DNA of 64,000 bases from Candidatus Poribacteria bacterium (GTDB lineage: Bacteria > Poribacteria > WGA-4E > WGA-3G): NCBI GenBank assembly GCA_965205015.1, contig OZ242029.1, positions 2,656,001-2,720,000 on the forward strand, given 5' to 3'. The notes beneath the pieces were generated by a model. That model ran no database searches and was not told the origin of the DNA. It saw only the letters and a list, made by a program, of their open reading frames with translations. A program made the position numbers and the translations under genes. Below are positions 3,226 through 58,023 of the stretch, piece after piece (within the stretch, counting starts at the first letter, position 1; the number at the start of each line of letters is the position of its first letter).

Positions 3226-4860
3226 CTATTGCACTCGGATGATTCGGCGTCCTGTGAAAGTTTGACCAAACATGTCAGTTGTACGGACGTGAATAACGTG
3301 CGTTCCTTTGCGGGCATTCGCTGGGAGTTTTGCTTGCCAGATATGCGATGATTTTGTAATCCCGCTCAGTGGACGTCCCCTTTGGGGTAGTTCGCCATTT
3401 TCCTTCAACTCTGACTTGATTGTTTCTCGAAGGGCGATATGCAGTTTCTGCTCAAGGTGGTTCGTATCGTCTCGTGCCTTAAGTGCTTTATAGTATGGGT
3501 CTTCCTGAGGCATATAGGTCATCGGGATCCATTCTCCGGCTTCGTCCAGACGGAACTCAACCGTTGAGCGTTTGGTGCCTCCAAAAACGTTAACGATGAC
3601 ATCTGTTGTGCCGGTGTCTGTAGAGACGACTTCCCAAGGTGCCCATATATTCATCTGATAATCCGCTGGACGACGGGCGGCTTTAAACCGGATCGAATAT
3701 TGATTTCCACTGAATGTGAAAATGCCATATCCGTTTGGGGCACCATCTCGCATGGTTGTGTGGGGAATACCGATTTCATCAAGCGTACCCCGCCACCAAC
3801 TGCCTGATGTGGTCGCGTGATTGTGGTGATGATGTGGGGCATCTCCATGCCAACCGTGGTCCGGTCCGACGAAATCATCTCGTTGGAAGTGCGTGTGTGC
3901 TGACAGGGATAACGTGTAGGGTCGATCGCCGAGTAGGTTCATCAATTGCTTCACATCACGCATCTCAGTCAACGGGATATGTAGGGATACAACAACGAGC
4001 TGCTCTTTCGGTACGAAAGCGAGGTCGTTTCGAATGAACGTCAGCTGCCGTTCTCCGACCTCACTCAAATAGCGAGGCTTATCCTCCTCATCGCGGTGAA
4101 AATACACGTTGTCGATGTTGATGAAATGAACGGGTCCCCAATCAAATGAATAACACGCGGGTCCATAAACACGTTCGAAGGTCTCATCAGCGTACCGGTC
4201 ATCCGTAGCAAGGAAATTCATATCGTGGTTACCGTGGACGTTGTACCAGGGTATTCCGACGGTAGCCATCACTTCGTTGAGTGGGTGGAATAGGTTTAGA
4301 TCGTCACCCACCAAATCGCCAAGGCTGAGTCCGAACACTGCATCAATGCCAATAACTTCTTCAATCACATCATGTGCTAACCACTCAATCTCTTGCATAT
4401 TATAGGGTTGTGTATCCCCGAAGACAAGGACCTTGAAGGTATCCGCCTCAGGCTGTTCAGTGAGTGGAAAATCAACCGATTCTGGTAATGGACCGGTGGG
4501 TCCGATGCCTGCGTACTTGAGTCCTTCAGGTGAACCGTGCGGTTTGTGAATGTAATAAAACCGCGGGAGACGATTTTCATCAACGGGTGTCATAAACCCG
4601 CGAGGCTTAATAACAAAAAGAATAGTGTCATCGCTGACTGGGAGTGAATAGTGTCCATTGGCATCGGTCTTTACAATATCCTGCCCGTTTGAAACGCGAA
4701 CCCCAGGCACCCCTTTCTCGGTATCGTCCTTCACCTGATTTCTGTTTGTATCCAGAAATACAGTGCCAGTTGCTGTTAAATTTGCTGCGACACTGGTTCC
4801 AATCCAGCAAAAAATTAAGATGACGATTAAAACCACACGATTCCATTGCTTGTAAATCAT
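3226..4860 (-). CDS. Secreted calcineurin-like metallophosphoesterase
   Basis: Signal peptide; GDTQ, GDLVGD, GNHD, AHTH metal-binding motifs. Confidence 0.88.
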   Translation of the reverse strand: MIYKQWNRVVLIVILIFCWIGTSVAANLTATGTVFLDTNRNQVKDDTEKGVPGVRVSNGQDIVKTDANGHYSLPVSDDTILFVIKPRGFMTPVDENRLPRFYYIHKPHGSPEGLKYAGIGPTGPLPESVDFPLTEQPEADTFKVLVFGDTQPYNMQEIEWLAHDVIEEVIGIDAVFGLSLGDLVGDDLNLFHPLNEVMATVGIPWYNVHGNHDMNFLATDDRYADETFERVYGPACYSFDWGPVHFINIDNVYFHRDEEDKPRYLSEVGERQLTFIRNDLAFVPKEQLVVVSLHIPLTEMRDVKQLMNLLGDRPYTLSLSAHTHFQRDDFVGPDHGWHGDAPHHHHNHATTSGSWWRGTLDEIGIPHTTMRDGAPNGYGIFTFSGNQYSIRFKAARRPADYQMNIWAPWEVVSTDTGTTDVIVNVFGGTKRSTVEFRLDEAGEWIPMTYMPQEDPYYKALKARDDTNHLEQKLHIALRETIKSELKENGELPQRGRPLSGITKSSHIWQAKLPANARKGTHVIHVRTTDMFGQTFTGRRIIRVQ

Positions 4861-28568: not shown

Positions 28569-30914
28569 TTAACTCGAAACTGATAGTGCGTACGTTTTCC
28601 CTGCCTCTGTTGCAAACGTGACAACCGACTCCGCTTGTTCCGTTTCAACTGGTACGCCATCACCTGTCACCGAAACGGTTGCGGCTGTTCGGACAGTGCA
28701 GTCTTCTCCCAATGTGGAATGGAATCGTGCCTCGGAGAGTTGTCCATTCTCCCATGCCATTGCCACCTCAAATCCGCCGCGGGCGCGCAATCCACTGACA
28801 CTTCCTGTGCTCCATGCCTTTGGAAGCGCGGGCAACAGGTGAATCTCACCGGCGTGACTCTGAAGCAACATCTCAGCAATGCCGGCGGTTCCTCCGAAAT
28901 TTCCATCAATCTGAAACGGTGGATGTGTATCAAATAAGTTGGTTAAGGTGCATTTCGCCAAAAGTGCCTGAAGATGTGCGTATGCCTCCTCGGCGTCCTC
29001 AAGCCGCGCCCAGAAGTTGACGAGCCATGCGCGGCTCCAACCCGTGTGCCCACCCCCGTGCGCCAAGCGATATTCCAACGATTTTTTTGCTGCGGCTGCT
29101 AACTCGGGTGTCCCGCGTAGTGTAATCTGACAACTTGGATGGAGCGCATACATGTGAGACATGTGCCGGTGTCCGGGTTCCGGTTCGTCATAGTCAAAGA
29201 CCCATTCTTGCAACCGTCCTGTTTTCTCGCTAATCTGGAGCGGTGCGAGTCGTTCCAGAGCAGCGACCAATTCAGTCCGGAATTCGGCATCCTCCCCGAG
29301 CACATCAATGCAGGCGATACAGTTGGTAAAGAGTTCATGAATGATTTCCAGGTCCATCGTTGCAGCGTAGGTAAAAAGCGAGCGTGTGCCATCAGACTTT
29401 AGGAAGCTATTTTCGGGTGAATGTGACGGGTTCGTGACGAGTTTACCAGCAAGAGGTGTGCCTTCGGGTGCCTCAACGAGAAAATCGAGTATAAAACGGG
29501 CGGCACCTTTCATGAGTGGGTAGCCCTGCCCTATGAGAAAATCTTTATCGCCATGGAAAAGATAGTGTTCCCATACATGTTCACAGAGCCACGCTGCTCC
29601 TACGGGCCAGATACCCCAGATGCCATCAGCAGGCGTTGTGAAACCCCATACGTCAGAAAGATGATGGACAACCCAGCCATTGGCACCGTAATGGCATTTT
29701 GCCGTGCGACTTCCCGGTTCAACAAGTGTCTCCATATAATCGAATAAGGGGATATGGCACTCCGCAAGGTTGCAGATTTCAGGAACCCAATAGTTCATCT
29801 GGAGATTGATATTGGTATGAAAATCGCTATTCCAAGGGGCATTCATGTGCTCGTTCCAGATGCCTTGTAAATTCGCCGGTAAGCATCCGGGTCTCGAACT
29901 TCCCATCATCAAGTAGCGTCCATACTGGAAATAGAGGACAACCAGTCCCGGGTCCGATGTGCCAATCTTTACAGCTTCCAAACGTTCGTCGGTTGGTAGA
30001 TTCGCAGTGTCGGTTCTACCGAGATCCAGGTGTACGCGTTGGAAGAGTTCCTGATGGTCGGCAATGTGATCTGCTCGAACTGTCTTATAGGATTTTGCAT
30101 CAATATCAGTGAGATGTCTCTCGCAAAGCGCGTGTGGATTTCCGCTCACATCCTTCTGATTAATGTAACTTGTCGCTGCGGCGAGCAGAAGCGTCACGGC
30201 ATTTGCGTCACGCACAACGAGTTGGTCATTCTCCGACTGGATCTGCCCACCCTCGATTTGTGCCTGTAGGTATACTGAAAAGCGCATGCCATCCTTGCCA
30301 CATTGTCCGTCCAATCTAAGGATATTAGCGGCAATTGCTTCAACAGTGGCATCTTGTTCCCGGGTTATTGAGACATCGAAAGCGAGTTGCCCTACCGTGT
30401 CAGATTCAATTCTGAGGGCAATAAGATTGTCGACGGCTGTTGCAAAGACCTCTCTACTAAAATTGACATCTCTGCAGCGATAGGTTGTTTTTGCAATACC
30501 TGTGTCCAAATTTAACTCTCGGCGGTACTCAGTAGGATCATCATCATGGGAAAATTCCAGAAAGAGATCGCCCAAGGATTGATAGGACTTGATACGCTCA
30601 GGAACGCCAAGCATTGTCTCACCAGCGAGTTGAGTGGCTTCTTCGTTTTTGTCGTCAAAAAGCAATTGCTGCACTTTTGAGAGTGCTTCCAAAGCCTTTG
30701 GATTGTTCGTGTCGCGAGGACCGCCGTCCCACAGACTTTCTTCGTTGAGTTGAATATGGTCCCGTTCCACACCCCCGAACACCATAGCACCGAGCCGTCC
30801 GTTTCCAATGGGGAGTGCGTCTGTCCATGCCTCGGCTGGTTTCTGATACCATAAAACAAGATTATTTGTGTCTATGTTTGTTATTGGCTTTTTTAGCAAT
30901 TGGCTCTTAGGCAT
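28569..30914 (-). CDS. GH95 alpha-L-fucosidase-like glycoside hydrolase
   Basis: [42 protein letters not shown]. Confidence 0.95.
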
Positions 30915-30977
30915 CGTTCTCCTTCGTTTCACGATGGTTTTTGGTGAATCGCGACGCGACTGAAAACCTGTGCGATT

Positions 30978-31922
30978 TTAATATCGTTTTTTCTCTTGAT
31001 GCAAAGATGATTCCCACAACCATCCGCGTTGTTCTCGGTGGCGGCATAATACCTTCACTGCTTCATGTGCTTTCTTCTCTGCTGCGATGTGTAAAGGCGT
31101 ATGACCTTTATCATCTTCAGCGTTAGCATCCGCACCACTTTCCAACAGAACCAACGCCGTTTCGTAGGCATTGTGCTGTGCGGCAACGTGCAAGGGTGTA
31201 TCGCCATTTTCGTCCGTTGCGTTGATATCCGCGCCATTCTTTACCAACACCGTTGCTACTTCAGACGTATCGTCTTCCGCCGCGATGTGTAATGGGGTAC
31301 AGCCATTTTTATCTTTTGCGTTGATATCCGCGCCATTCTCCAGTAATACGACGGCTGTTTTATAGGCGTTACGCCACGCTGCCCAGTGCAGGAGTGTATA
31401 ACCAGATTTGTTTCTCGGATTGACTCCTGTCTGGTCTTCCAGCGAGATTCCTTCTGCTTCATAAACATTGCGCCACGCTGCCCAGTGTAAAGGTGTGTCG
31501 CCCTCTTCACTCCTTGCGTTGACATCTGCGCCATTTTCCAACAGTATCGTTGCTGTTTCATGCCCATTATTCCATGCTGCCCAATGTAAGGGCGTAAAAT
31601 CCTTATCGTTCTTTGCGTTGACATCTGCGCCATTTTCCAGCAATACCGCTGCTGCCTCATAAGCATTGTGCCATGCCGCCCAGTGCAGGGGCGGGTAACC
31701 GTATGTATCTCTTGCGTTGACATCTGCGCCATTTTCCAGCAATACCGCTGCTGCCTCATAAGCATTGTCGCGTGCCGCGTCATGCAGGGAGGTATAACCA
31801 GGTTCCTCCGCCGGGGTAGCTGGACGCGCGATGTACTTAGATGTTGATGAATTTACCATCTTTCCTGTATCTATTTCTGAGGTAACTTCCATGACATCAT
31901 TTAAGATTCGTTTGTGAACCAA
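30978..31922 (-). CDS. Ankyrin-repeat protein (about 8 repeats)
   Basis: Repeated G.TPLH.AA......A..LLENGADVNA; start placed at TTG after AAGGAGG (uncertain). Confidence 0.9.
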   Translation of the reverse strand: MVHKRILNDVMEVTSEIDTGKMVNSSTSKYIARPATPAEEPGYTSLHDAARDNAYEAAAVLLENGADVNARDTYGYPPLHWAAWHNAYEAAAVLLENGADVNAKNDKDFTPLHWAAWNNGHETATILLENGADVNARSEEGDTPLHWAAWRNVYEAEGISLEDQTGVNPRNKSGYTLLHWAAWRNAYKTAVVLLENGADINAKDKNGCTPLHIAAEDDTSEVATVLVKNGADINATDENGDTPLHVAAQHNAYETALVLLESGADANAEDDKGHTPLHIAAEKKAHEAVKVLCRHREQRGWLWESSLHQEKKRY

Positions 31923-31972
31923 AACAGGAACCTCCTTTTCTATTTGGATTTCTAACTGTGGGCTGATGACTC

Positions 31973-33262
31973 TTATGCAGTTATGCGTTGCCAAGGGACA
32001 CGCCCTGCCTTTTGCGTTTCCGCCTGAAATAATTGACTCATTTCTCTAAAGAGGTCCAGTTGTATCTGTGAGTCGTTCGTCGTTTCCAGTGGATCGCTTG
32101 ATAAATCGTAGAGTTCCAATGGCTCAAAAGGACTGTTGTGCAATAATTTAGTGTCCCCACGCCGTATGGCATGCTGACACTGCCCCAGAAATCGCTGTCC
32201 GCCCTCTCTTCGCAACCAGTAGAGAATGCGGTCAGAGAAGTCTTGCTGTTCCCCTTGGAGTGTTTGCCAAATTGAACGTGCTTCGATTTCGTGAGTGATC
32301 GGGACTCCAGCTACCTCACAGACTGTCGGGAAAAGGTCCATCAGCAAGGCCACCTGATCGGTGACATGTCCCTCCGGAACATGCCCTGGCCACATTGCAC
32401 AGGTCGGGACTCGGATGCCGCCTTCGTACATTTCACCCTTTTGCCCGCGTATGGGACCGTTATGTGCGCCGACGTCCATCGACCCGCCATTATCAGAGGT
32501 ATAAATAACGAGTGTATTGGACAGCTGATCCGTTTCAACAAGCGTATCAAGTACTCGCCCAATACCAGCATCCATGTGCTCAACAAGCGCAATGTATTTG
32601 GCGCGCTGTGGAGAAATGTCCGGCTCGCGTTCCCTGACGCGTTCCACCCAATCATCCGGCGGTTGGATCGGTGTATGTGGCGCGTTATATGCAAGATAGA
32701 GGAAAAAAGGAGACTCGGATGATTCTGCCTGAGCACGAATGAAATCCGTACTCCATTCCGTGAAGAGGTCTGTGGCGTGTCCTCTCGGATCGATCGTATC
32801 GAAGCCGTGTTGCATGTAATTGATATCGTGTCGGAGATGTGTGTAGTAGTCATCCATCATATCGCCGAGAAAACCGTGGAAATGGTCGAAACCCCGTTTA
32901 CATGGATGGTTCTCCGGTTCAAGTCCAAGGTGCCACTTACCGATGAGTGCGGTCTGATACGCCTTCCGCTTCAAAATTGATGGGAGTGTGACGGCGTCCT
33001 GTCGAAAGTAGCCCCAACTGTTTTCTGGATGGGTGCGGATTACGCCCGGCACTCCGACTCGGTCGGGGTAGCGTCCGGTCATGAGAGCGGATCTACTGGG
33101 AGAACAGACGGAGGAATTGGCATAAAATTGGGTAAATCGCACCCCGTTTTCGGCGATTCTGTCAATATTGGGCGTCTGAATTGATGGACCGTTGTGAGCT
33201 GAAATATCACCATAACCGTGGTCGTCGGCGAGAATAAGCAGTACATTCGGGGACTTCGTCAT
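31973..33262 (-). CDS. Formylglycine-dependent sulfatase
   Basis: PNVLLILADD, CSPSR, GKWHLG, SDNG. Confidence 0.95.
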   Translation of the reverse strand: MTKSPNVLLILADDHGYGDISAHNGPSIQTPNIDRIAENGVRFTQFYANSSVCSPSRSALMTGRYPDRVGVPGVIRTHPENSWGYFRQDAVTLPSILKRKAYQTALIGKWHLGLEPENHPCKRGFDHFHGFLGDMMDDYYTHLRHDINYMQHGFDTIDPRGHATDLFTEWSTDFIRAQAESSESPFFLYLAYNAPHTPIQPPDDWVERVREREPDISPQRAKYIALVEHMDAGIGRVLDTLVETDQLSNTLVIYTSDNGGSMDVGAHNGPIRGQKGEMYEGGIRVPTCAMWPGHVPEGHVTDQVALLMDLFPTVCEVAGVPITHEIEARSIWQTLQGEQQDFSDRILYWLRREGGQRFLGQCQHAIRRGDTKLLHNSPFEPLELYDLSSDPLETTNDSQIQLDLFREMSQLFQAETQKAGRVPWQRITA

Positions 33263-33378
33263 AATGTTTCCTTGACAGATGTAGGCGAATCCTAAACTCG
33301 TCCATGCCTCAGTGGCGTCGAGGAATGAGTGCAACCGGTCGTTCAGAGAACGCCCCAGCTGCACTCGGTTTGTCTGGT

Positions 33379-34167
33379 CTATTGCCGAGCTTTAATGCTG
33401 CCCCATGTGGTTGCAAGCTTACCAGAAGGCTCAACAGGCAGGAGTGTTCGCATTCCTTTTTCCATCAATTCCTTTATATCTTCTGCTTCCAGCACAGAAG
33501 CGAAAATTGCGACCTCATAGAGTATACCATCGAGGGTCTCTGAAGTGTTGTTGGTCCAACCACCGATGTTGACATCCGTGTCATTCCGAGGTGCCGGTTT
33601 ACCCATCCCGCCAACAGAAGCGATTTCCTCAGCATTTTCGTAGATCTTGATGGTATCCTTTGCGTCGTAAGTTGCGGTCATGTACAACCATTCATCTTTC
33701 TTCACTTGACTTTGATTCCAGGCACCTTTCCAACCGCCGTTCGCGAAGTAAGCTTCCCAACCGGTGCCGGAGCTGCTTGTCCTGAAGGCGTAATTTGCCA
33801 CTGTACCCGCCGCGGGTCTTTTGCCGAGAATATGTCCATACCCGTTCTCGGATTTGTTGACATACACCCATGAAGTGATTGACCACGCCTTTTCCAGATA
33901 CATACTGTCGGAATCTGCGATGATAACCCGATCATTTTGTCCATTTAAGCTTAGAGCGGCGGGACCCTTATTTGGTCCTTTGACCCATTTTCCGCCCTGA
34001 AGTTCACCGTGATTCTCGTTTCCAGAGATATCCTCGATTTGATCGCCTTTCCCTTCGTCGAGTAGCCAAATGCCTCTTGCGGTTTCAAAATCTATCTCTG
34101 CATAGGTTGGGACTGCGAAGGTCAAACCGATGGTGATAATCGCTAAGCAAACTATAACGGATTTCAT
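33379..34167 (-). CDS. Secreted LamG-like jellyroll protein (Lys-rich member of pair)
   Basis: Signal peptide; W.LDEG.G..I.D.SG...HG; LPVEPSGKLATTW tail. Confidence 0.85.
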   Translation of the reverse strand: MKSVIVCLAIITIGLTFAVPTYAEIDFETARGIWLLDEGKGDQIEDISGNENHGELQGGKWVKGPNKGPAALSLNGQNDRVIIADSDSMYLEKAWSITSWVYVNKSENGYGHILGKRPAAGTVANYAFRTSSSGTGWEAYFANGGWKGAWNQSQVKKDEWLYMTATYDAKDTIKIYENAEEIASVGGMGKPAPRNDTDVNIGGWTNNTSETLDGILYEVAIFASVLEAEDIKELMEKGMRTLLPVEPSGKLATTWGSIKARQ

Positions 34168-34175
34168 GTTTACCT

Positions 34176-34575
34176 GTTCTTAAAAACCTATGTTTTTCCG
34201 AAGAAATCCATAAATTTCTAAAGGGTTCCTAACCCCTGTTACGGCACCCGTCAGTGTCTAAGCCTACCTATACCCAACTGTGCCTGCCACGTTAGCAGAA
34301 GATATAGGCGGCTTGCATATCCCAAGAAACACGGGATATGGACGAACCGTCAAAGTTAGCACCGAAATGCTAACGCCTTTTTCTCGCCCCGTACTCTATT
34401 TTCCAGGCTCATCAACGGGTATTTGAACCTGTCGGGCAGCCCTACGTGGTTCTTGTAGGTTGCATTGGTTTTTGCGACTGCCAGAGGCGGTATGTGGGAA
34501 TCGAACCCACCGAGAATGCCTACATTTACCGCGAAACATAGAAAAAACAAGAAAAACAACTATGTAGGAATGACT
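34176..34575 (-). ncRNA. 400-nt structured RNA element inserted in the RBS, copy A
   Basis: Homologous to 55788-56202 with compensatory changes; absent from the homologous leader of paralog 34671-35453. Confidence 0.85.
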
Positions 34576-34670
34576 CCTAAAGGTTGAATTTACCGTTAAA
34601 GAACATTTACGTCGGTGTGTCCCTTTAGTTGTTCAGGTGACCCACCGACTGCGCCCAATTTGTTCAACGC

Positions 34671-35453
34671 TTATTGAGATTTGATGTCTGCCCATGTCGT
34701 TGCGAGTTTGCCAGAAGGTTCAACAGGAGTGACTAAGGACGGGAGTCCCTCGTCCATCAGGGTGTTTACGTCTTCTTCTGACAGCGCGACACTAAAAAGC
34801 GCGACCTCAGAAAGCATACCGTCAAGGGTCTCTGTGGTATTGTTGGTCCAACCGCCGATGTTGGTGTCAGTATCATTCCGGGGTGCCGGTCCACCAAGAC
34901 CGCCAACAGAACCGATTTCAGCTCCGTTTTCGTAGATTTTGATGGTGTCTTCTCCATCATAAGTTGCGGTCATGTACAACCATTCATCTTTCTTGACGGT
35001 TCCTTGATTCCAAGCCCCTTTCCAGCCGCCTCGCGAGTAATATGCTTCCCAGCCGGTACCATTGCCGCTTGTCCTGAAGGCGTAATTTGCCACCGTCCCA
35101 GATGCGGGTCTTTTGCCGAGAATATGTCCAAAACCGTTCTCGGTGCTATTCACGAAAACCCATGCAGTGATTGTCCACGCCTTCTCCAGATACAAACTAT
35201 CGGAGTCAGCAATGATAACCCGATCATCTTGTCCGTTCAAACTTAGGGCAGGCCCATTCGGTCCGTCGACCCATTCTCCGCCCTGAAGTTCACCGTGATT
35301 TTCGTTTCCAGACATATCGTTGATCATATTGCCTTCGCCTTCATCGAGTAACCAAATGCCTCGTGCGGTTCCAAGGTCGATCTCCGCATAGGTCTGGACT
35401 GTGAAGGTTAGACTGATGATAAGAATCGCTAAGCGAATTATAGTGGATTTCAT
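34671..35453 (-). CDS. Secreted LamG-like jellyroll protein (acidic member of pair)
   Basis: Close paralog of 33379-34167; intact AGGAGGT RBS; TPVEPSGKLATTW tail. Confidence 0.85.
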   Translation of the reverse strand: MKSTIIRLAILIISLTFTVQTYAEIDLGTARGIWLLDEGEGNMINDMSGNENHGELQGGEWVDGPNGPALSLNGQDDRVIIADSDSLYLEKAWTITAWVFVNSTENGFGHILGKRPASGTVANYAFRTSGNGTGWEAYYSRGGWKGAWNQGTVKKDEWLYMTATYDGEDTIKIYENGAEIGSVGGLGGPAPRNDTDTNIGGWTNNTTETLDGMLSEVALFSVALSEEDVNTLMDEGLPSLVTPVEPSGKLATTWADIKSQ

Positions 35454-35585: not shown

Positions 35586-36605
35586 TCATAATTCACCGTA
35601 ATTAACCGACTCTTCTGAATTTACCGCCTGAATCAGTGCGATGATGTATCCGAACTGGAATGCCCATGCCTGTCGAACCCTACCAGAAACACCGGAGGGC
35701 GATGGATCGTCTGGATGTCCTGGTGCGTGATCAGGCATTAGCATGTAGGGGTATTCTACATCTCGAAGCGTCTGTGCAACTTTGTGCATGTCCAAGTGTC
35801 CCTCGTCGGGCCAGACCTCTTGGAAGTTGTGCAGTCCGCCTCGGATGTTACGAAAGTGAATGTTGAAAAGTTTTTTCTGCTCACCAAAATAGCGGAGGAT
35901 TTCGTAGAACTCAGTGCTTGGATCGTCTAAACCCTCGGACACTGTGCCGCAGCAGAAATTAAAACCGTGATAGGGACTATCCACAATTTCAGCGTAACGT
36001 TTCAAACCATCAAAGATGGGATAATTCCACCGTTCAACGCCTCTCAAAATAGGTGCGGGTGGATCGTTTGGGTGACACGCCATCTGGATTCGGTTCGCTT
36101 CGGCGACTGGGATCACACGTTCAAGGAAATACGCGATTCGATCAAACGCTTCTTCCCGACTGACCTCACCTGCTTCTGACAACGTTTCGTTATCGTACTT
36201 GGAAAGGTCGAATGTGCTGTAACTTGAGCCACCGCGCCCGAGTGTGCTCTCCGTCCGCTGATGGTTTAGGATGCAAAAATTATAATTTAAACCTCGCAAT
36301 CCAGCCGCTGCAGCGTTCTCGATCATTTTACAAACGGCATCAATATCTCGATCGCGCTGCGGATCTTCGGCAAGCGTAATGCTCCTTGGAAGCCCAATAT
36401 GAATCATCTCCAGGCTAACACCTGCTTCCGCCGCTTCCGCTTTGTGTCGAGCCAGCGTTTCGGTTTCGGTATTCTCAACGGAGGCATCCATGTGCGTTAC
36501 CCCGTGGCGCACGAGGAATGCCAACTCTTTGGGAGATGTTCCGATTCCTTGGACACCGACGTGCATCGCTGCCTTTTTGTGTGATTGTTTCTCAGGTGTA
36601 TCCAT
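35586..36605 (-). CDS. Mannonate dehydratase (UxuA)-like protein
   Basis: YNF, VIPVAE..IQMACHPNDPP, FCCGT, HFRNI, MPDHAP. Confidence 0.8.
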   Translation of the reverse strand: MDTPEKQSHKKAAMHVGVQGIGTSPKELAFLVRHGVTHMDASVENTETETLARHKAEAAEAGVSLEMIHIGLPRSITLAEDPQRDRDIDAVCKMIENAAAAGLRGLNYNFCILNHQRTESTLGRGGSSYSTFDLSKYDNETLSEAGEVSREEAFDRIAYFLERVIPVAEANRIQMACHPNDPPAPILRGVERWNYPIFDGLKRYAEIVDSPYHGFNFCCGTVSEGLDDPSTEFYEILRYFGEQKKLFNIHFRNIRGGLHNFQEVWPDEGHLDMHKVAQTLRDVEYPYMLMPDHAPGHPDDPSPSGVSGRVRQAWAFQFGYIIALIQAVNSEESVNYGEL

Positions 36606-36855
36606 CGTTTTGTTCTCCTGTGCCAATTGCGTGTGCCGTATCAACTGTCGGGCTAAAACGTTATCTGCACATTGTAACATACTTAAAAAATTAGGTCAAT
36701 TCAAAATGAGAGCACCGTCAGAGGCATTTGGTTTTCAGTACATCAAACTCACGTTGAGATTGGCGATTGACAATTCCTGAGAGGTGTGTTAAGTTAATGC
36801 CAATCTTTTAGACCTAATTCTGCGTCACAAACTTAACTGAAAGAGGGAAATTCTC

Positions 36856-55685: not shown

Positions 55686-55715
55686 TTGACATATTTGGGT
55701 GCTTTCCTATATCAT
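55686..55715 (+). promoter_or_regulatory. Sigma-70 promoter, duplicated at 57118-57147
   Basis: TTGACA-N18-TATCAT in both copies, followed by a homologous ~70-nt leader. Confidence 0.7.
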
Positions 55716-55787
55716 ATTCCTATGCGTTAAAACGCGGGTCTCTTTTTAAGATTCGCACAGTGCGTTAATTTTGTTTTAGACATGAGG

Positions 55788-56202
55788 GGTCGTTCCTAAA
55801 TAGTTGTTTTTCTTGCTTTTTCTATGTTTCGCGGTAAATGTAGGCATTTTGAGGGGTTCAAGTCCCCTCTCCCGCATCCCAGTAGCATCGTGCGATACCC
55901 AAGCACACCCGACGAAAACCACGTCGGTTCTACTGTGAGGGGTTCATACACGAGTGAGACGAACCCTGACACTGTGAGGACACTCGGAAGTAAAATAAGG
56001 CGTTAGCATTTCGGTGTTAACTTTGTGGGTTACACCATACCTCGCGCAACCTTGAGGTATGCAAGCCGCGTATCGCTTCTGACGACGTATCAGACGACAC
56101 TGGTGATATTCAGGCTTAGAGGCTGTCGAGTCTCGTCATAAGGGGGTAGGATCCCCGTAGAAATCTGTGGGTTTAAATAGAAATACATAGATTTTTACTA
56201 AC
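55788..56202 (+). ncRNA. 415-nt structured RNA element inserted in the RBS, copy B
   Basis: Homologous to 34176-34575; absent from the homologous leader of paralog 57229-58023. Confidence 0.85.
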
Positions 56203-56212
56203 AGATATATTC

Positions 56213-57004
56213 ATGCGTTTAATGTTGTATTTATTTGCCGTTTCACTCTTAATGGTAGGCAGTGCGCTTACCACACACGCTGTGGTCCAAGACGACGGCT
56301 TAATCCTTTATTTCAGTTTCGATGACGCAAAAAACGGAACAATTATGGATGAAACCGGTGGCGGAAATGATGGTGTCGTTGATGGCGCAGAGATTGCTAC
56401 CGACGAAGTCGTCTACGGCAAGGGATCCTTGTTATGTGATGACGGTAATGACAGTGTGTCGGTTGATACTTTTAAAGAATTAGAGGAATATACAGACAAT
56501 TCCTATCTTTTCTGGCTCAATTTCACCGACGTGAATTCCGGGGCGTGGAATCAAATCATAGCAAAAAAAGCACCCGGTTCTGACCGTTCTCCGGGGATAT
56601 GGACTTGTAACCGCGCCAGTTTGCATATCCACTATCGGTTCAATCCGGGTAACCAAGGCACACTCTGTGCGGGTCCCGAGGGAGAAGATGACGAATTTGC
56701 AGTCGGGGACTGGCATCACATTGCAGGTGTCAAAGAGGGTGACCAGTTGAAGTTCTATGTTGATGGAGAAGTCGTTGTGGAGCAGAGTGTTCCGGCGAGT
56801 CACGCGCAAGGTGCGGAGAAACTCTATATCGGTAAAACGGGTTATAACGCTGCGCTCTTCTACATTGATGACCTCTATGTCTATGACAGAGCACTCAGTG
56901 CCGATGAAGTAGAAAATATCATGGAGGGGGGGCTTCTCACGCCTGTGGAACCTCAGGACAAACTCGCCACGACGTGGGGACACCTGAAAACACGCCGTGA
57001 TTAA
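56213..57004 (+). CDS. Secreted LamG-like protein (acidic member of pair)
   Basis: Signal peptide; LILYFSFD, WHHIAGV, IDDL.VYDRALS; TPVEPQDKLATTW tail. Confidence 0.88.
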   Translation: MRLMLYLFAVSLLMVGSALTTHAVVQDDGLILYFSFDDAKNGTIMDETGGGNDGVVDGAEIATDEVVYGKGSLLCDDGNDSVSVDTFKELEEYTDNSYLFWLNFTDVNSGAWNQIIAKKAPGSDRSPGIWTCNRASLHIHYRFNPGNQGTLCAGPEGEDDEFAVGDWHHIAGVKEGDQLKFYVDGEVVVEQSVPASHAQGAEKLYIGKTGYNAALFYIDDLYVYDRALSADEVENIMEGGLLTPVEPQDKLATTWGHLKTRRD

Positions 57005-57228
57005 TTTCGTTCTTCCCTGAAACAACTTGTAGGGACGGCTTCTATGTCGTCCCACATCTATTTCCCCATTTGTGTCTGCCTATTTCTCGAATACACACCC
57101 CACCGCACATATTTTCCTTGACATCTTTAAGTTTTTTCGTGTATCATATTCTCACGAGTTAAAACGCGGGTCCTTTTTAAAGACTCACACAGTATGTTAA
57201 CTTTGTTTCAGACATGAGGAGGTTACTC

Positions 57229-58023
57229 ATGCGTTCAGTTATGTATGTACTCGCCGTTGCCCTATTAGTCATAGGCAGCGCACTCTCCACAGATGCCGCA
57301 AAGGTCGAAGATAAGGGGTTAATCCTTTACTTCAGTTTCGATGAAGCAAAAGGCGGAAATCTTGAAGATGGAACCGGTGGCGGAAATAACGGTGAAATCG
57401 TTGATGGGGCGAAGATTGTCAAGGATGAAGTTGTCCATGGCAAAGGTTCAATGTTATTTGCCAAGCCGGGGGACAGTGTGCAGGTCGATTCCTTCAAAGA
57501 ATTAGAAGATTATACGGACAACTCCTATCTCTTCTGGCTCAACTTTACGGATCCAAACTCCGGTGGCTGGGATCAGATTATTGCAAAAAAAGCTCCCGGC
57601 TCTGACCGTTCACCCGGTATATGGACCTGTAACCGTGTACCTCTGTATATCCACTACCGGTTTAATCCCGGTAACGCCGGCACGCATTGTGCAGGTCCCG
57701 ATGGAGAAAACGACACATTTGATGAGAATAAGTGGTATCACATTGCAGGGGTCAAAGAGGATGCCCAGTTGATGTTCTATGTCGATGGAAAAGAGGTTGT
57801 GAAGATAGCCGTTCCGAAGGATCACGCACAAGGTGCGGAGAAACTTTACATCGGTAAAACGGGTTATAACGCTGCGAAGTTTTACATTGACGATCTCTAC
57901 GTTTACGACAGAGCCCTGAGTGCGAAAGAGGTTGTAAACGTTATGGAGGGTGGACTACTTCCTGTTGAACCTCAAGACAAGCTCGCCTCTACGTGGGGAC
58001 AACTGAAAAGAAATCGTGACTAA
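57229..58023 (+). CDS. Secreted LamG-like protein (Lys-rich member of pair)
   Basis: Close paralog of 56213-57004; intact GAGGAGG RBS; LPVEPQDKLASTW tail. Confidence 0.88.
   Translation: MRSVMYVLAVALLVIGSALSTDAAKVEDKGLILYFSFDEAKGGNLEDGTGGGNNGEIVDGAKIVKDEVVHGKGSMLFAKPGDSVQVDSFKELEDYTDNSYLFWLNFTDPNSGGWDQIIAKKAPGSDRSPGIWTCNRVPLYIHYRFNPGNAGTHCAGPDGENDTFDENKWYHIAGVKEDAQLMFYVDGKEVVKIAVPKDHAQGAEKLYIGKTGYNAAKFYIDDLYVYDRALSAKEVVNVMEGGLLPVEPQDKLASTWGQLKRNRD

Follow-up and report, generated by a model that had tools for sequence, protein, structure and literature searches.

An IS607-family derivative without open reading frames, very probably carrying a TnpB guide RNA, lies between Shine-Dalgarno sequence and start codon in Poribacteria

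The closest known systems have been described as follows. IS607 of Helicobacter pylori enters a target ending in G without duplicating it and carries direct repeats in its ends (PMC6188088). The IS607-type IStron CsISt1 inserts after AG and has a CAG terminus; in IStrons of this type, the last base of the 5′ exon is G, the first base of the element U and the terminal base again G, and the same account reports them only from Firmicutes and Fusobacteria (PMC4227781). A universal feature of the omega (guide) RNAs of TnpB is the pairing of the first stem-loop, the nexus, with the 3′ end of the scaffold (Žedaveinytė et al., 10.1101/2023.11.20.567912). Here we analyse a stretch of 64,000 nt from a Candidatus Poribacteria genome (the window; assembly GCA_965205015.1, contig OZ242029.1, positions 2,656,001 to 2,720,000), which holds two copies of a structured element without open reading frames (ORFs): copy B, of 415 nt, on the plus strand at 55790-56204, and copy A, of 400 nt, on the minus strand at 34174-34573, with an identity of about 75-78% between them. 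A previous, sequence-only reading had recognized in copy B an RNA under selection for structure. This holds, but the mobile IS607 nature of the element and the identity of its omega scaffold were missed, and while the element is present where it had been placed, both ends of the proposed interval, 55788-56202, were off by 2 nt. Our analysis makes it very probable that the element is a non-autonomous, ORF-less derivative of the IS607 family, with a TnpB omega RNA as its 3′ part, and suggests that it is moved and used in trans.

The element is a mobile insertion in Poribacteria, as is evident from orthologous loci that lack it. Two loci, L006 and L002, are syntenic with that of copy B, sharing the upstream FMN-reductase gene, by eye the same promoter region, and a LamG gene of 90% identity. 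Their empty site reads GAGGAGG-TTTACTC-ATG, or in longer form ...TAGACATGAGGAGG-TTTACTC-ATG, whereas the filled site in the window reads GAGGGG-[415 nt]-ATATATTC-ATG, or ...TAGACATGAGGGG-[415 nt]-ATATATTC-ATG, which puts the element exactly between the Shine-Dalgarno (SD) sequence and the start codon. The split ribosome binding site that had been proposed for copy B can thus be seen directly. Both loci came from a set assembled with the four LamG paralogues of the window as query, of which the first 80 Poribacteria loci were taken; BLAST of the elements against these 80 loci found no copy, and the set proved to include empty sites. A second case is the ribosomal protein gene rplU, which is empty in five genomes (L194-L198; AGAAAGGAG|TAATATTCAAAA-ATG) and filled in genome G125 (L154; AGAAGGAAG[TAGTTCC...CTAAAAG]TAATATTTAAAA-ATG). 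Neither at the LamG nor at the rplU site is a target duplication visible, except for an ambiguous AG common to both junctions. Furthermore, a DNA contig of sequencing run X4 spans the LamG site and is about 450 nt shorter there, and whole-genome BLAST finds a copy of 95% identity at another locus in genome G001.

At the copy B locus, the host SD sequence GAGGGG (55784-55789, plus strand), which is the insertion target and the presumed target-adjacent motif (TAM), abuts the left end, and the start codon at 56213 opens the gene of a secreted LamG (Laminin_G_3) protein (56213-57004, plus strand). A promoter scan places the sigma-70-like promoter of this gene, TTGACA-18-TATCAT with 11 of 12 consensus matches, at 55686-55715 on the plus strand, upstream of the SD sequence, so that the element would be read through from a host promoter; within the element, a simple promoter scan detected no promoter in the sense direction. 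Copy A is arranged alike on the minus strand, with AGGAG abutting its left end (34574-34578) and a LamG gene (33379-34167) whose ATG lies 6 nt past its right end.

The family to which the element belongs is disclosed by its ends. Whole-genome BLAST in five relatives returned, besides further copies, matches split in two, with 1.7 kb separating the first ~45 nt from the last ~190 nt. The two pieces enclose two genes, encoding a serine recombinase TnpA with an N-terminal helix-turn-helix and TnpB. In the full-length element L101, Pfam assigns Resolvase to TnpA, and Cas12f1-like_TNB and HTH_OrfB_IS605 to TnpB, where OrfB_IS605 appears only below the cut-off. Twelve further full-length copies from other genomes match a model of the element only at ~3-50 and ~236/240-430; what ORF-less and full-length elements have in common is a left end of ~50 nt and a 3′ region of ~195 nt (~200). 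The middle module of the window copies, which we call X, is absent from all 12. In copy B, the left end (55790-55830, plus strand) consists of TCGTTCCTAAATAG followed by T-rich direct repeats and was delimited by BLAST and nhmmer matches to full-length IS607 elements at positions 3-50. The repeats are visible in an alignment, A3, of 35 distinct whole elements (35 of 36 references; L084 was left out for its divergent left end), on which RNAalifold finds no conserved RNA helix in the left end. Short direct repeats in the left end, a G-ending target and the lack of a duplication characterize the elements, many copies have inverted-repeat ends of ~9 bp (GTTCCTAAA / TTTAGGAAC), and the element begins with U in most copies and ends with AG in every one. 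ORF-less copies would be mobilised by TnpA in trans.

Some observations concern the full-length elements themselves. In L101, at 3870-3900 (G001:C2), the sole upstream ATG is shifted by one base against the recombinase frame of tnpA; a frameshift, a non-ATG start or an assembly error are possible reasons. L169 (G001) and L170 (G135) are full-length IS607 copies in two species that occupy the same SD-ATG site before the same ferredoxin-domain gene, with TnpB proteins 89% identical, which suggests that an autonomous copy has stayed in this place for a long time. Some TnpB matches, for example in G133, G130, G142 and G165, hold in-frame TGA, TAA or TAG codons, and G165 has many degraded copies.

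The RNA structure of the element was assessed on A3 and on a second alignment, A4, of 66 distinct copies of the 5′ module (66 of 69 references, without L133, which is cut off by the end of its contig, L118, which contains a 30-nt insert, and L167, which has an internal deletion). The structure tested comprised the helices listed by the sequence-only reading together with two pseudoknots, and was compared with 500 shuffles and with registers slid by 1-3 columns. In A4, 95.6% of 3642 cells are paired, versus 86.1% after shuffling, and 29 of 56 pairs have changed on both sides; the covariation score of 0.305 (0.138 shuffled) is reached by none of the 500 shuffles, and slid registers attain at most 0.064. 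The values for A3 are similar, with 96.1% of cells paired, 46 of 99 pairs changed on both sides, and a covariation score of 0.378 (0.186 shuffled) that again no shuffle out of 500 reaches, slid registers remaining at or below 0.095. Of the 92 pairs that RNAalifold predicts on A3, 43 show compensatory changes. The inferred selection on RNA structure is thus borne out by the larger alignments, and all of the helices described before are present in both window copies, that is, the T-arm, the junction stem with its two hairpins, the GGUUC/GAACC stem with its pseudoknot, the UUCG hairpin and three downstream stems. For the GGGG-UAGGA-CCCC hairpin, which is mis-registered in A3 (62.6% paired), covariation neither supports nor refutes the pairing.

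The 3′ half of copy B, at 56002-56204 on the plus strand and including the right end ...UACUAACAG, is homologous to the region that follows tnpB in the 12 full-length elements and contains helices 9-17 of A3; its counterpart in copy A lies at 34174-34374 on the minus strand. The stop codon of tnpB falls, in full-length elements, within the loop of the second scaffold hairpin, from where the shared region extends to the right end, finishing with ...AACAG in all copies compared. The scaffold opens with the UUCG hairpin (56002-56021, plus strand, in copy B; 34355-34374, minus strand, in copy A), which takes the place of a hairpin formed inside the tnpB coding sequence of full-length elements and is therefore counted as part of it. 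There follows the nexus hairpin (56025-56035, plus strand), whose loop GUUA (56029-56032) pairs with UAAC at 56199-56202 in a long-range pseudoknot across 190 nt. This helix, number 12 in A3, is 99.3% paired, and its column pair 282/470 is A-U in 23 of the 35 elements, C-G in 12 and unpaired in none, a covariation that explains the alternation of ACUAAC and AGGAAC at the right end. Three covarying stems, the GGGG-UAGGA-CCCC hairpin and a long AU-rich hairpin make up the rest. The stem that had been said to recall domain V of group II introns is really an omega hairpin of ~50 nt (helix 14). Judged by its sequence and covariation, the 3′ part is a TnpB omega RNA in architecture, including the covarying nexus pseudoknot, and is predicted to bind TnpB and to guide its cleavage. 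The putative guide would then be the flanking host DNA at 56205-56224 (plus strand), including the spacer and the ATG at 56213, an assignment that follows the omega RNA architecture as described (10.1101/2023.11.20.567912). With permissive settings, Rfam returned for RAGATH-32 only a match at chance level (11.7 bits).

Where do these elements insert? We compared 45 distinct complete copies, a set that includes orthologous sites and does not represent 45 independent events. AGGAG abuts the left end in 36 of the 45 and an SD-like motif in 43, while an ATG is found 3-12 nt past the right end in 31, and a GTG or TTG in most of the other 14. As full-length elements are placed likewise at SD-ATG sites, SD targeting is a property of the lineage and not of X. 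The target AGGAG resembles the right half-site of the element ends, and this likeness we infer to be why the recombinase chooses SD sequences. The list of downstream N-termini has 44 distinct entries, some of them orthologous. Pfam searches on ten genes downstream of X-bearing copies gave L21, L28, S20, thioredoxin, NuoD, CoxIII, STAS, ThuA and a xylose-isomerase-like TIM-barrel, with one gene unmatched. X-bearing copies thus lie between SD sequence and start of rplU, rpmB, rpsT, trxA, nuoD and coxIII, and as the interrupted rplU and rpmB are the sole copies of those genes in their genomes, ORF-less insertions must allow for translation. Nine full-length elements are followed by genes that encode Fer4, glyoxalase, altronate dehydratase, oxidoreductase, three PhyH proteins, a circularly permuted ATP-grasp and one unknown protein; none of these nine genes serves translation or respiration. 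L092, an ORF-less element that lacks X, sits between SD sequence and ATG of tsf (EF-Ts), and the AGGA of its right end is 9 nt before this ATG. More generally, where the right end is of the AGGAAC type, as at tsf, trxA and nuoD, its AGGA precedes the ATG by 9-13 nt and could supply a surrogate SD sequence; right ends of the commoner ACUAAC type cannot.

Module X comprises ~155 nt (55831-55986, plus strand, in copy B; as far as 34388, minus strand, in copy A), sits in the slot that tnpA and tnpB occupy in full-length elements, and in copy B ends 15 nt upstream of the omega scaffold. Its first part (55831-55875, plus strand; 34487-34532, minus strand, in copy A) mimics the elbow of tRNA, with an acceptor-like stem of 6 bp, a 4-bp hairpin with GG in its loop, and a 6-bp T-arm with the 7-nt loop UUCRANY (55851-55869, plus strand, in copy B; 34494-34510, minus strand, in copy A). 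This T-arm had been noticed before and is conserved across A4. Its 3′ strand continues directly into the 3′ strand of the outer stem, giving 12 stacked pairs like the acceptor/T minihelix of tRNA; the consensus of T-loop and acceptor/T stack used for this comparison is textbook knowledge. Helices 1-3 are 93.7-97% paired in A4, with double changes in 8 of 16 pairs, and the bases of the mimic's loops, U-U-C-R-A in the T-loop and GG in its partner, are invariant or at least 90% conserved. Rfam detects weak similarity to mascRNA-menRNA, at 20.1 and 25.7 bits and below the gathering score of 42.5, and the T-arm alone matches the tmRNA model at 12.5 bits. A genuine tRNA or tmRNA was considered and rejected, since ARAGORN predicts none in the window, no Rfam tRNA match falls on the element, and the anticodon arm of a full cloverleaf is missing. 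The second part (55880-55935, plus strand) is a three-way junction closed by CAGUAG/CUACUG around two hairpins with A-rich ...AACCA... loops; its helices 4-6 are 91.5-95% paired in A4, with double changes in 10 of 16 pairs. The third (55939-55986, plus strand) is an H-type pseudoknot of GGGGUUC/GAACCCU and CGAGUG/CACUCG and the most conserved part of the whole element, its helices 7 and 8 being 98.5% and 99.5% paired, and its strands and linker near-invariant in the 66 copies. The pseudoknot predicted by the earlier reading is therefore present, but compensatory changes in its second stem come only from copy A of the window and from L168.

Rfam reports nothing at gathering score anywhere in the window, and X belongs to no Rfam family. 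The earlier view that group I and canonical group II introns do not apply agrees with our results: no Rfam match is obtained, and helix order and ends do not fit. A group I intron was rejected on the lack of a match to RF00028 at E values up to 10 in both window copies and 18 related loci, and on topology, as the three-way junction precedes both pseudoknot strands on the 5′ side and is outside the pseudoknot, with ~5 nt between the first strands of the two stems, which does not fit a core of P3-P9 in which P4-P6 is placed between the first strands of P3 and P7. A group II intron was dismissed on account of starts that read UAGUUCC or UCGUUCC and not GUGYG, the absence of a domain V and, again, of an Rfam match. 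A small ORF within the element was discarded as well; a frame of 66 codons is open in copy B, but by eye the other copies in A3 have a stop right after the ATG.

By BLAST, X is found in 39 of 175 Poribacteria genomes; as at most four candidates were scored per genome, copy numbers are minima. A pattern search for its pseudoknot retrieved 13 metagenome contigs, all of them with ORF-less elements, and no viral contigs, while the exact pattern TTTCGCGGTAAATGTAGGCATT had no match in the genome contigs. One and the same X occurs with three or more left-end/omega types. Conversely, two ORF-less IS607 derivatives, L092 (G004:C1, about 3595750-3596200) and L096 (G002:C1), keep left end, UUCG hairpin and omega scaffold but have another middle in place of X; that of L092 is a singleton among the 175 genomes and was rejected as a second module family. 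One host gene, beginning MHIAKLSLI..., is preceded in different genomes by X-bearing elements of two left-end/omega types, L116 and L122 on the one hand and L142, L125, L159, L143, L123 and L139 on the other. Either insertion occurred there more than once, or recombination through X exchanged the ends in place.

A possible life cycle of the element can be outlined from these features. TnpA provided in trans would move it by recombination at an AG-ending target that resembles the element ends. Once inserted, it would be transcribed from the host promoter into an omega RNA with the host spacer and start-codon region as guide, which TnpB, likewise provided in trans, would use to cut empty sites, such that the element is kept in place. 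For X, the reading that we place first, albeit tentatively and at less than even chances, is that of an accessory 5′ domain of this trans-acting guide RNA. Its tRNA mimic would act as a handle for RNase P-type processing and for stability, its junction and pseudoknot would form a fold that protects the RNA or binds protein, and a functional omega RNA would thereby be carved from the host transcript. This would suit the position of X just before the scaffold, in copy B at a distance of those 15 nt, and its occurrence only where the context of a tnpB mRNA is missing. As X and tnpA-tnpB share one slot between common ends, the fact that they exclude each other hardly discriminates between the readings. 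This TnpB family co-occurs with X, being found in 26 of 39 X-positive genomes as opposed to 29 of 136 others (odds ratio 7.4, with the kinship of genomes ignored). Several points weigh against an IS607 derivative that works in trans with X as a guide-RNA domain. Neither tnpA nor tnpB is encoded in the 64-kb window, and their supply in trans in this organism is presumed. TnpB is unmatched in 13 of the 39 X-positive genomes, although two of these have weak X matches and most are fragmented metagenome-assembled genomes in which absence is unsure. No omega or reRNA family of Rfam, such as RAGATH-18, is matched at gathering score, nor at E values up to 10 or 5. A cut by RNase P at the tRNA mimic would detach the SD sequence from the rplU or rpmB mRNA, which speaks against a pure processing role, and the near-invariance of the pseudoknot exceeds what a mere stability handle needs.

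In a different kind of explanation, X would be the core of a new way, unrelated to group I introns, of hiding a transposon from the mRNA, be it a self-splicing ribozyme or an RNA bridge that reunites the SD sequence with a start codon 415 nt away. We regard this as rather unlikely overall, and each of its two versions as more so. In the former, which is unlikely and drawn by analogy with the IStrons, X, alone or with the omega part, would excise the element at the transposon boundaries and rejoin AGGAG to the spacer and ATG. The IStron literature offers a precedent in IS607-type elements that splice at their DNA boundaries, among them the ORF-less BcISt1 and the CAG-ending CsISt1 (PMC4227781), and the boundary bases G|U...CAG| of our elements would fit splice sites, although the recombinase requires the same bases. 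Removal from the RNA would accommodate X-bearing copies in front of the single-copy genes rplU and rpmB, and also of rpsT, trxA, nuoD and coxIII, particularly with ACUAAC right ends that offer no replacement SD sequence, and none of these core genes stands behind the nine full-length elements. Conservation of the pseudoknot is of the degree expected of a catalytic core, and X is retained while left-end and omega types differ. On the other hand, no group I, group II or self-cleaving ribozyme of Rfam is matched at E values up to 10, the order of helices is unlike that of a group I core, covariation links the 3′ end to the nexus loop of the omega RNA and not to X, and an ORF-less copy without X precedes tsf. 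A P1-like pairing of AGGAG with UUCCU can be drawn, but it recurs in full-length elements without X and is explained by the inverted-repeat ends. As for transcripts, the only RNA run found, X20 (0.06 of sampled words), gave one contig of 157 nt (55907-56063) with no joint across the element, too thin to bear on splicing; it derives from a poly(A)-selected metatranscriptome, differs at two positions over the X-omega junction, and may represent RNA or carried-over DNA from any copy in the community. All sequencing runs were compared as contigs; no spliced contig appeared among them, but neither this nor the lack of cover in some parts carries weight either way. A skip of 148 nt in runs X1 and X4 has loose ends that read as copy A and is due to cross-assembly of copies A and B.

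In the version of a bridge, which we consider quite unlikely, the element would stay in the mRNA, and a fold organised by X, with AGGA in its loops, would bring the upstream or a surrogate SD sequence near the ATG, or else insulate an AU-rich start for SD-free initiation. The essential-gene context of rplU, rpmB and tsf would be accounted for equally, start regions are AU-rich, for instance at rplU, and AGGAAC right ends offer their AGGA at 9-13 nt; yet the AGGAAC motif is already taken up by the omega pseudoknot. Pairing is possible between the left end GUUCCUAAA and the right end UUUAGGAAC, which covary in L147, but it is broken in the majority ACUAAC type, and inverted repeats at the DNA level explain the covariation just as well. 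Likewise, RNAalifold on A3 predicts that the left-end UCCU pairs with a loop AGGA of a 3′ hairpin, but as this pairing never varies, no covariation speaks for it. Between SD sequence and start codon, only short hairpins occur in genes 38 and 25 of phage T4, and we know of no precedent for a loop-out of 400 nt, which counts against a bridge. Finally, since a large, structured element stands before a LamG gene in the case of both window copies, one might think of a cis-regulatory leader of the host, such as a riboswitch of LamG genes, or of a free-standing ornate non-coding RNA gene. This is very improbable given that orthologous LamG and rplU loci are precisely devoid of the element, that the ten downstream genes scanned with Pfam fall into nine unrelated families with no constant gene class, and that both ends are those of an insertion sequence.

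Four secreted LamG paralogues are arranged in the window as two tandem pairs (56213-57004 and 57214-58023; 33379-34167 and 34671-35453), with 74% identity within the one pair that was compared, and in each pair an element stands in front of one gene only. All four end in a C-terminal tail, PVEP-x-x-KLA-x-TW-x-x-x-K, that resembles a shared sorting or anchoring signal. Around copy A (28569-33364, 35586-36680), genes for a GH95 fucosidase, a sulfatase and UxuA-like proteins make up a carbohydrate-degradation neighbourhood beside the secreted LamG genes.

What does the existence of such elements imply? By taking the SD motif as target and presumably as TAM, this IS607/TnpB lineage separates the ribosome binding site from the start codon with each insertion, and each insertion would be transcribed from a host promoter. 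As ORF-less copies lie before the single-copy genes rplU and rpmB, and also before tsf, rpsT, trxA and nuoD, a solution to translation initiation must exist at the RNA level. In the ORF slot, and common to several end and guide-RNA types, stands X, a module of no Rfam family. Should X prove to be a ribozyme or a translation bridge, this would be categorically new, and such a hiding device could let an SD-targeting IS607 lineage live before single-copy ribosomal-protein genes, in functional parallel to the IStrons but with a different RNA and in a different phylum. The guide-RNA scaffolds together with an AGGAG TAM may also be of interest for the mining of TnpB systems. In a literature search that was not exhaustive, we found no description of an SD-targeting IS607 element or of module X.

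Among known systems, the palindrome-associated elements of the IS200/IS605 family are simple end-to-end deletions in which the ends are kept and the ORFs lost, with mobilisation presumed to occur in trans; here, by contrast, a conserved structured RNA of ~155 nt fills the ORF slot and is common to several end types. With mascRNA of MALAT1 (RF01684), X shares an acceptor-like stem stacked on a T-arm and the T-loop consensus, at 20-26 bits, but it stays below the gathering score, lacks an anticodon arm and is found in bacteria within a transposon transcript, and for X processing is predicted only. The agreement with IS607, as described for Clostridium botulinum (10.1101/2023.11.20.567912) and H. 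pylori (PMC6188088), extends from serine-recombinase TnpA and TnpB in the full-length relatives, lack of duplication, G-ending target and direct repeats in the ends to a scaffold that begins at the 3′ end of tnpB and extends as far as the right end, the pseudoknot between nexus and 3′ end, and the identity of the last two scaffold bases with the last two bases of the target. What sets the Poribacterial elements apart is the target AGGAG in place of (T)GGG, so that insertions come to lie between SD sequence and start, the inverted-repeat ends of ~9 bp in many copies, the ORF-less window copies with X, and the lack of a reRNA match in Rfam. Closest in overall design are the group B IStrons BcISt1 and CsISt1, which show (PMC4227781) the same succession of left end, structured RNA, optional ORFs, omega RNA and right end, the same boundaries G|U...CAG|, ORF-less forms, and likewise an RNA module and a guide RNA on one transcript. 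They differ in that X is not a group I intron, with no Rfam match and another topology, never occurs together with the ORFs and would splice only in a reading that we hold unlikely, and in that its host phylum is the Poribacteria.

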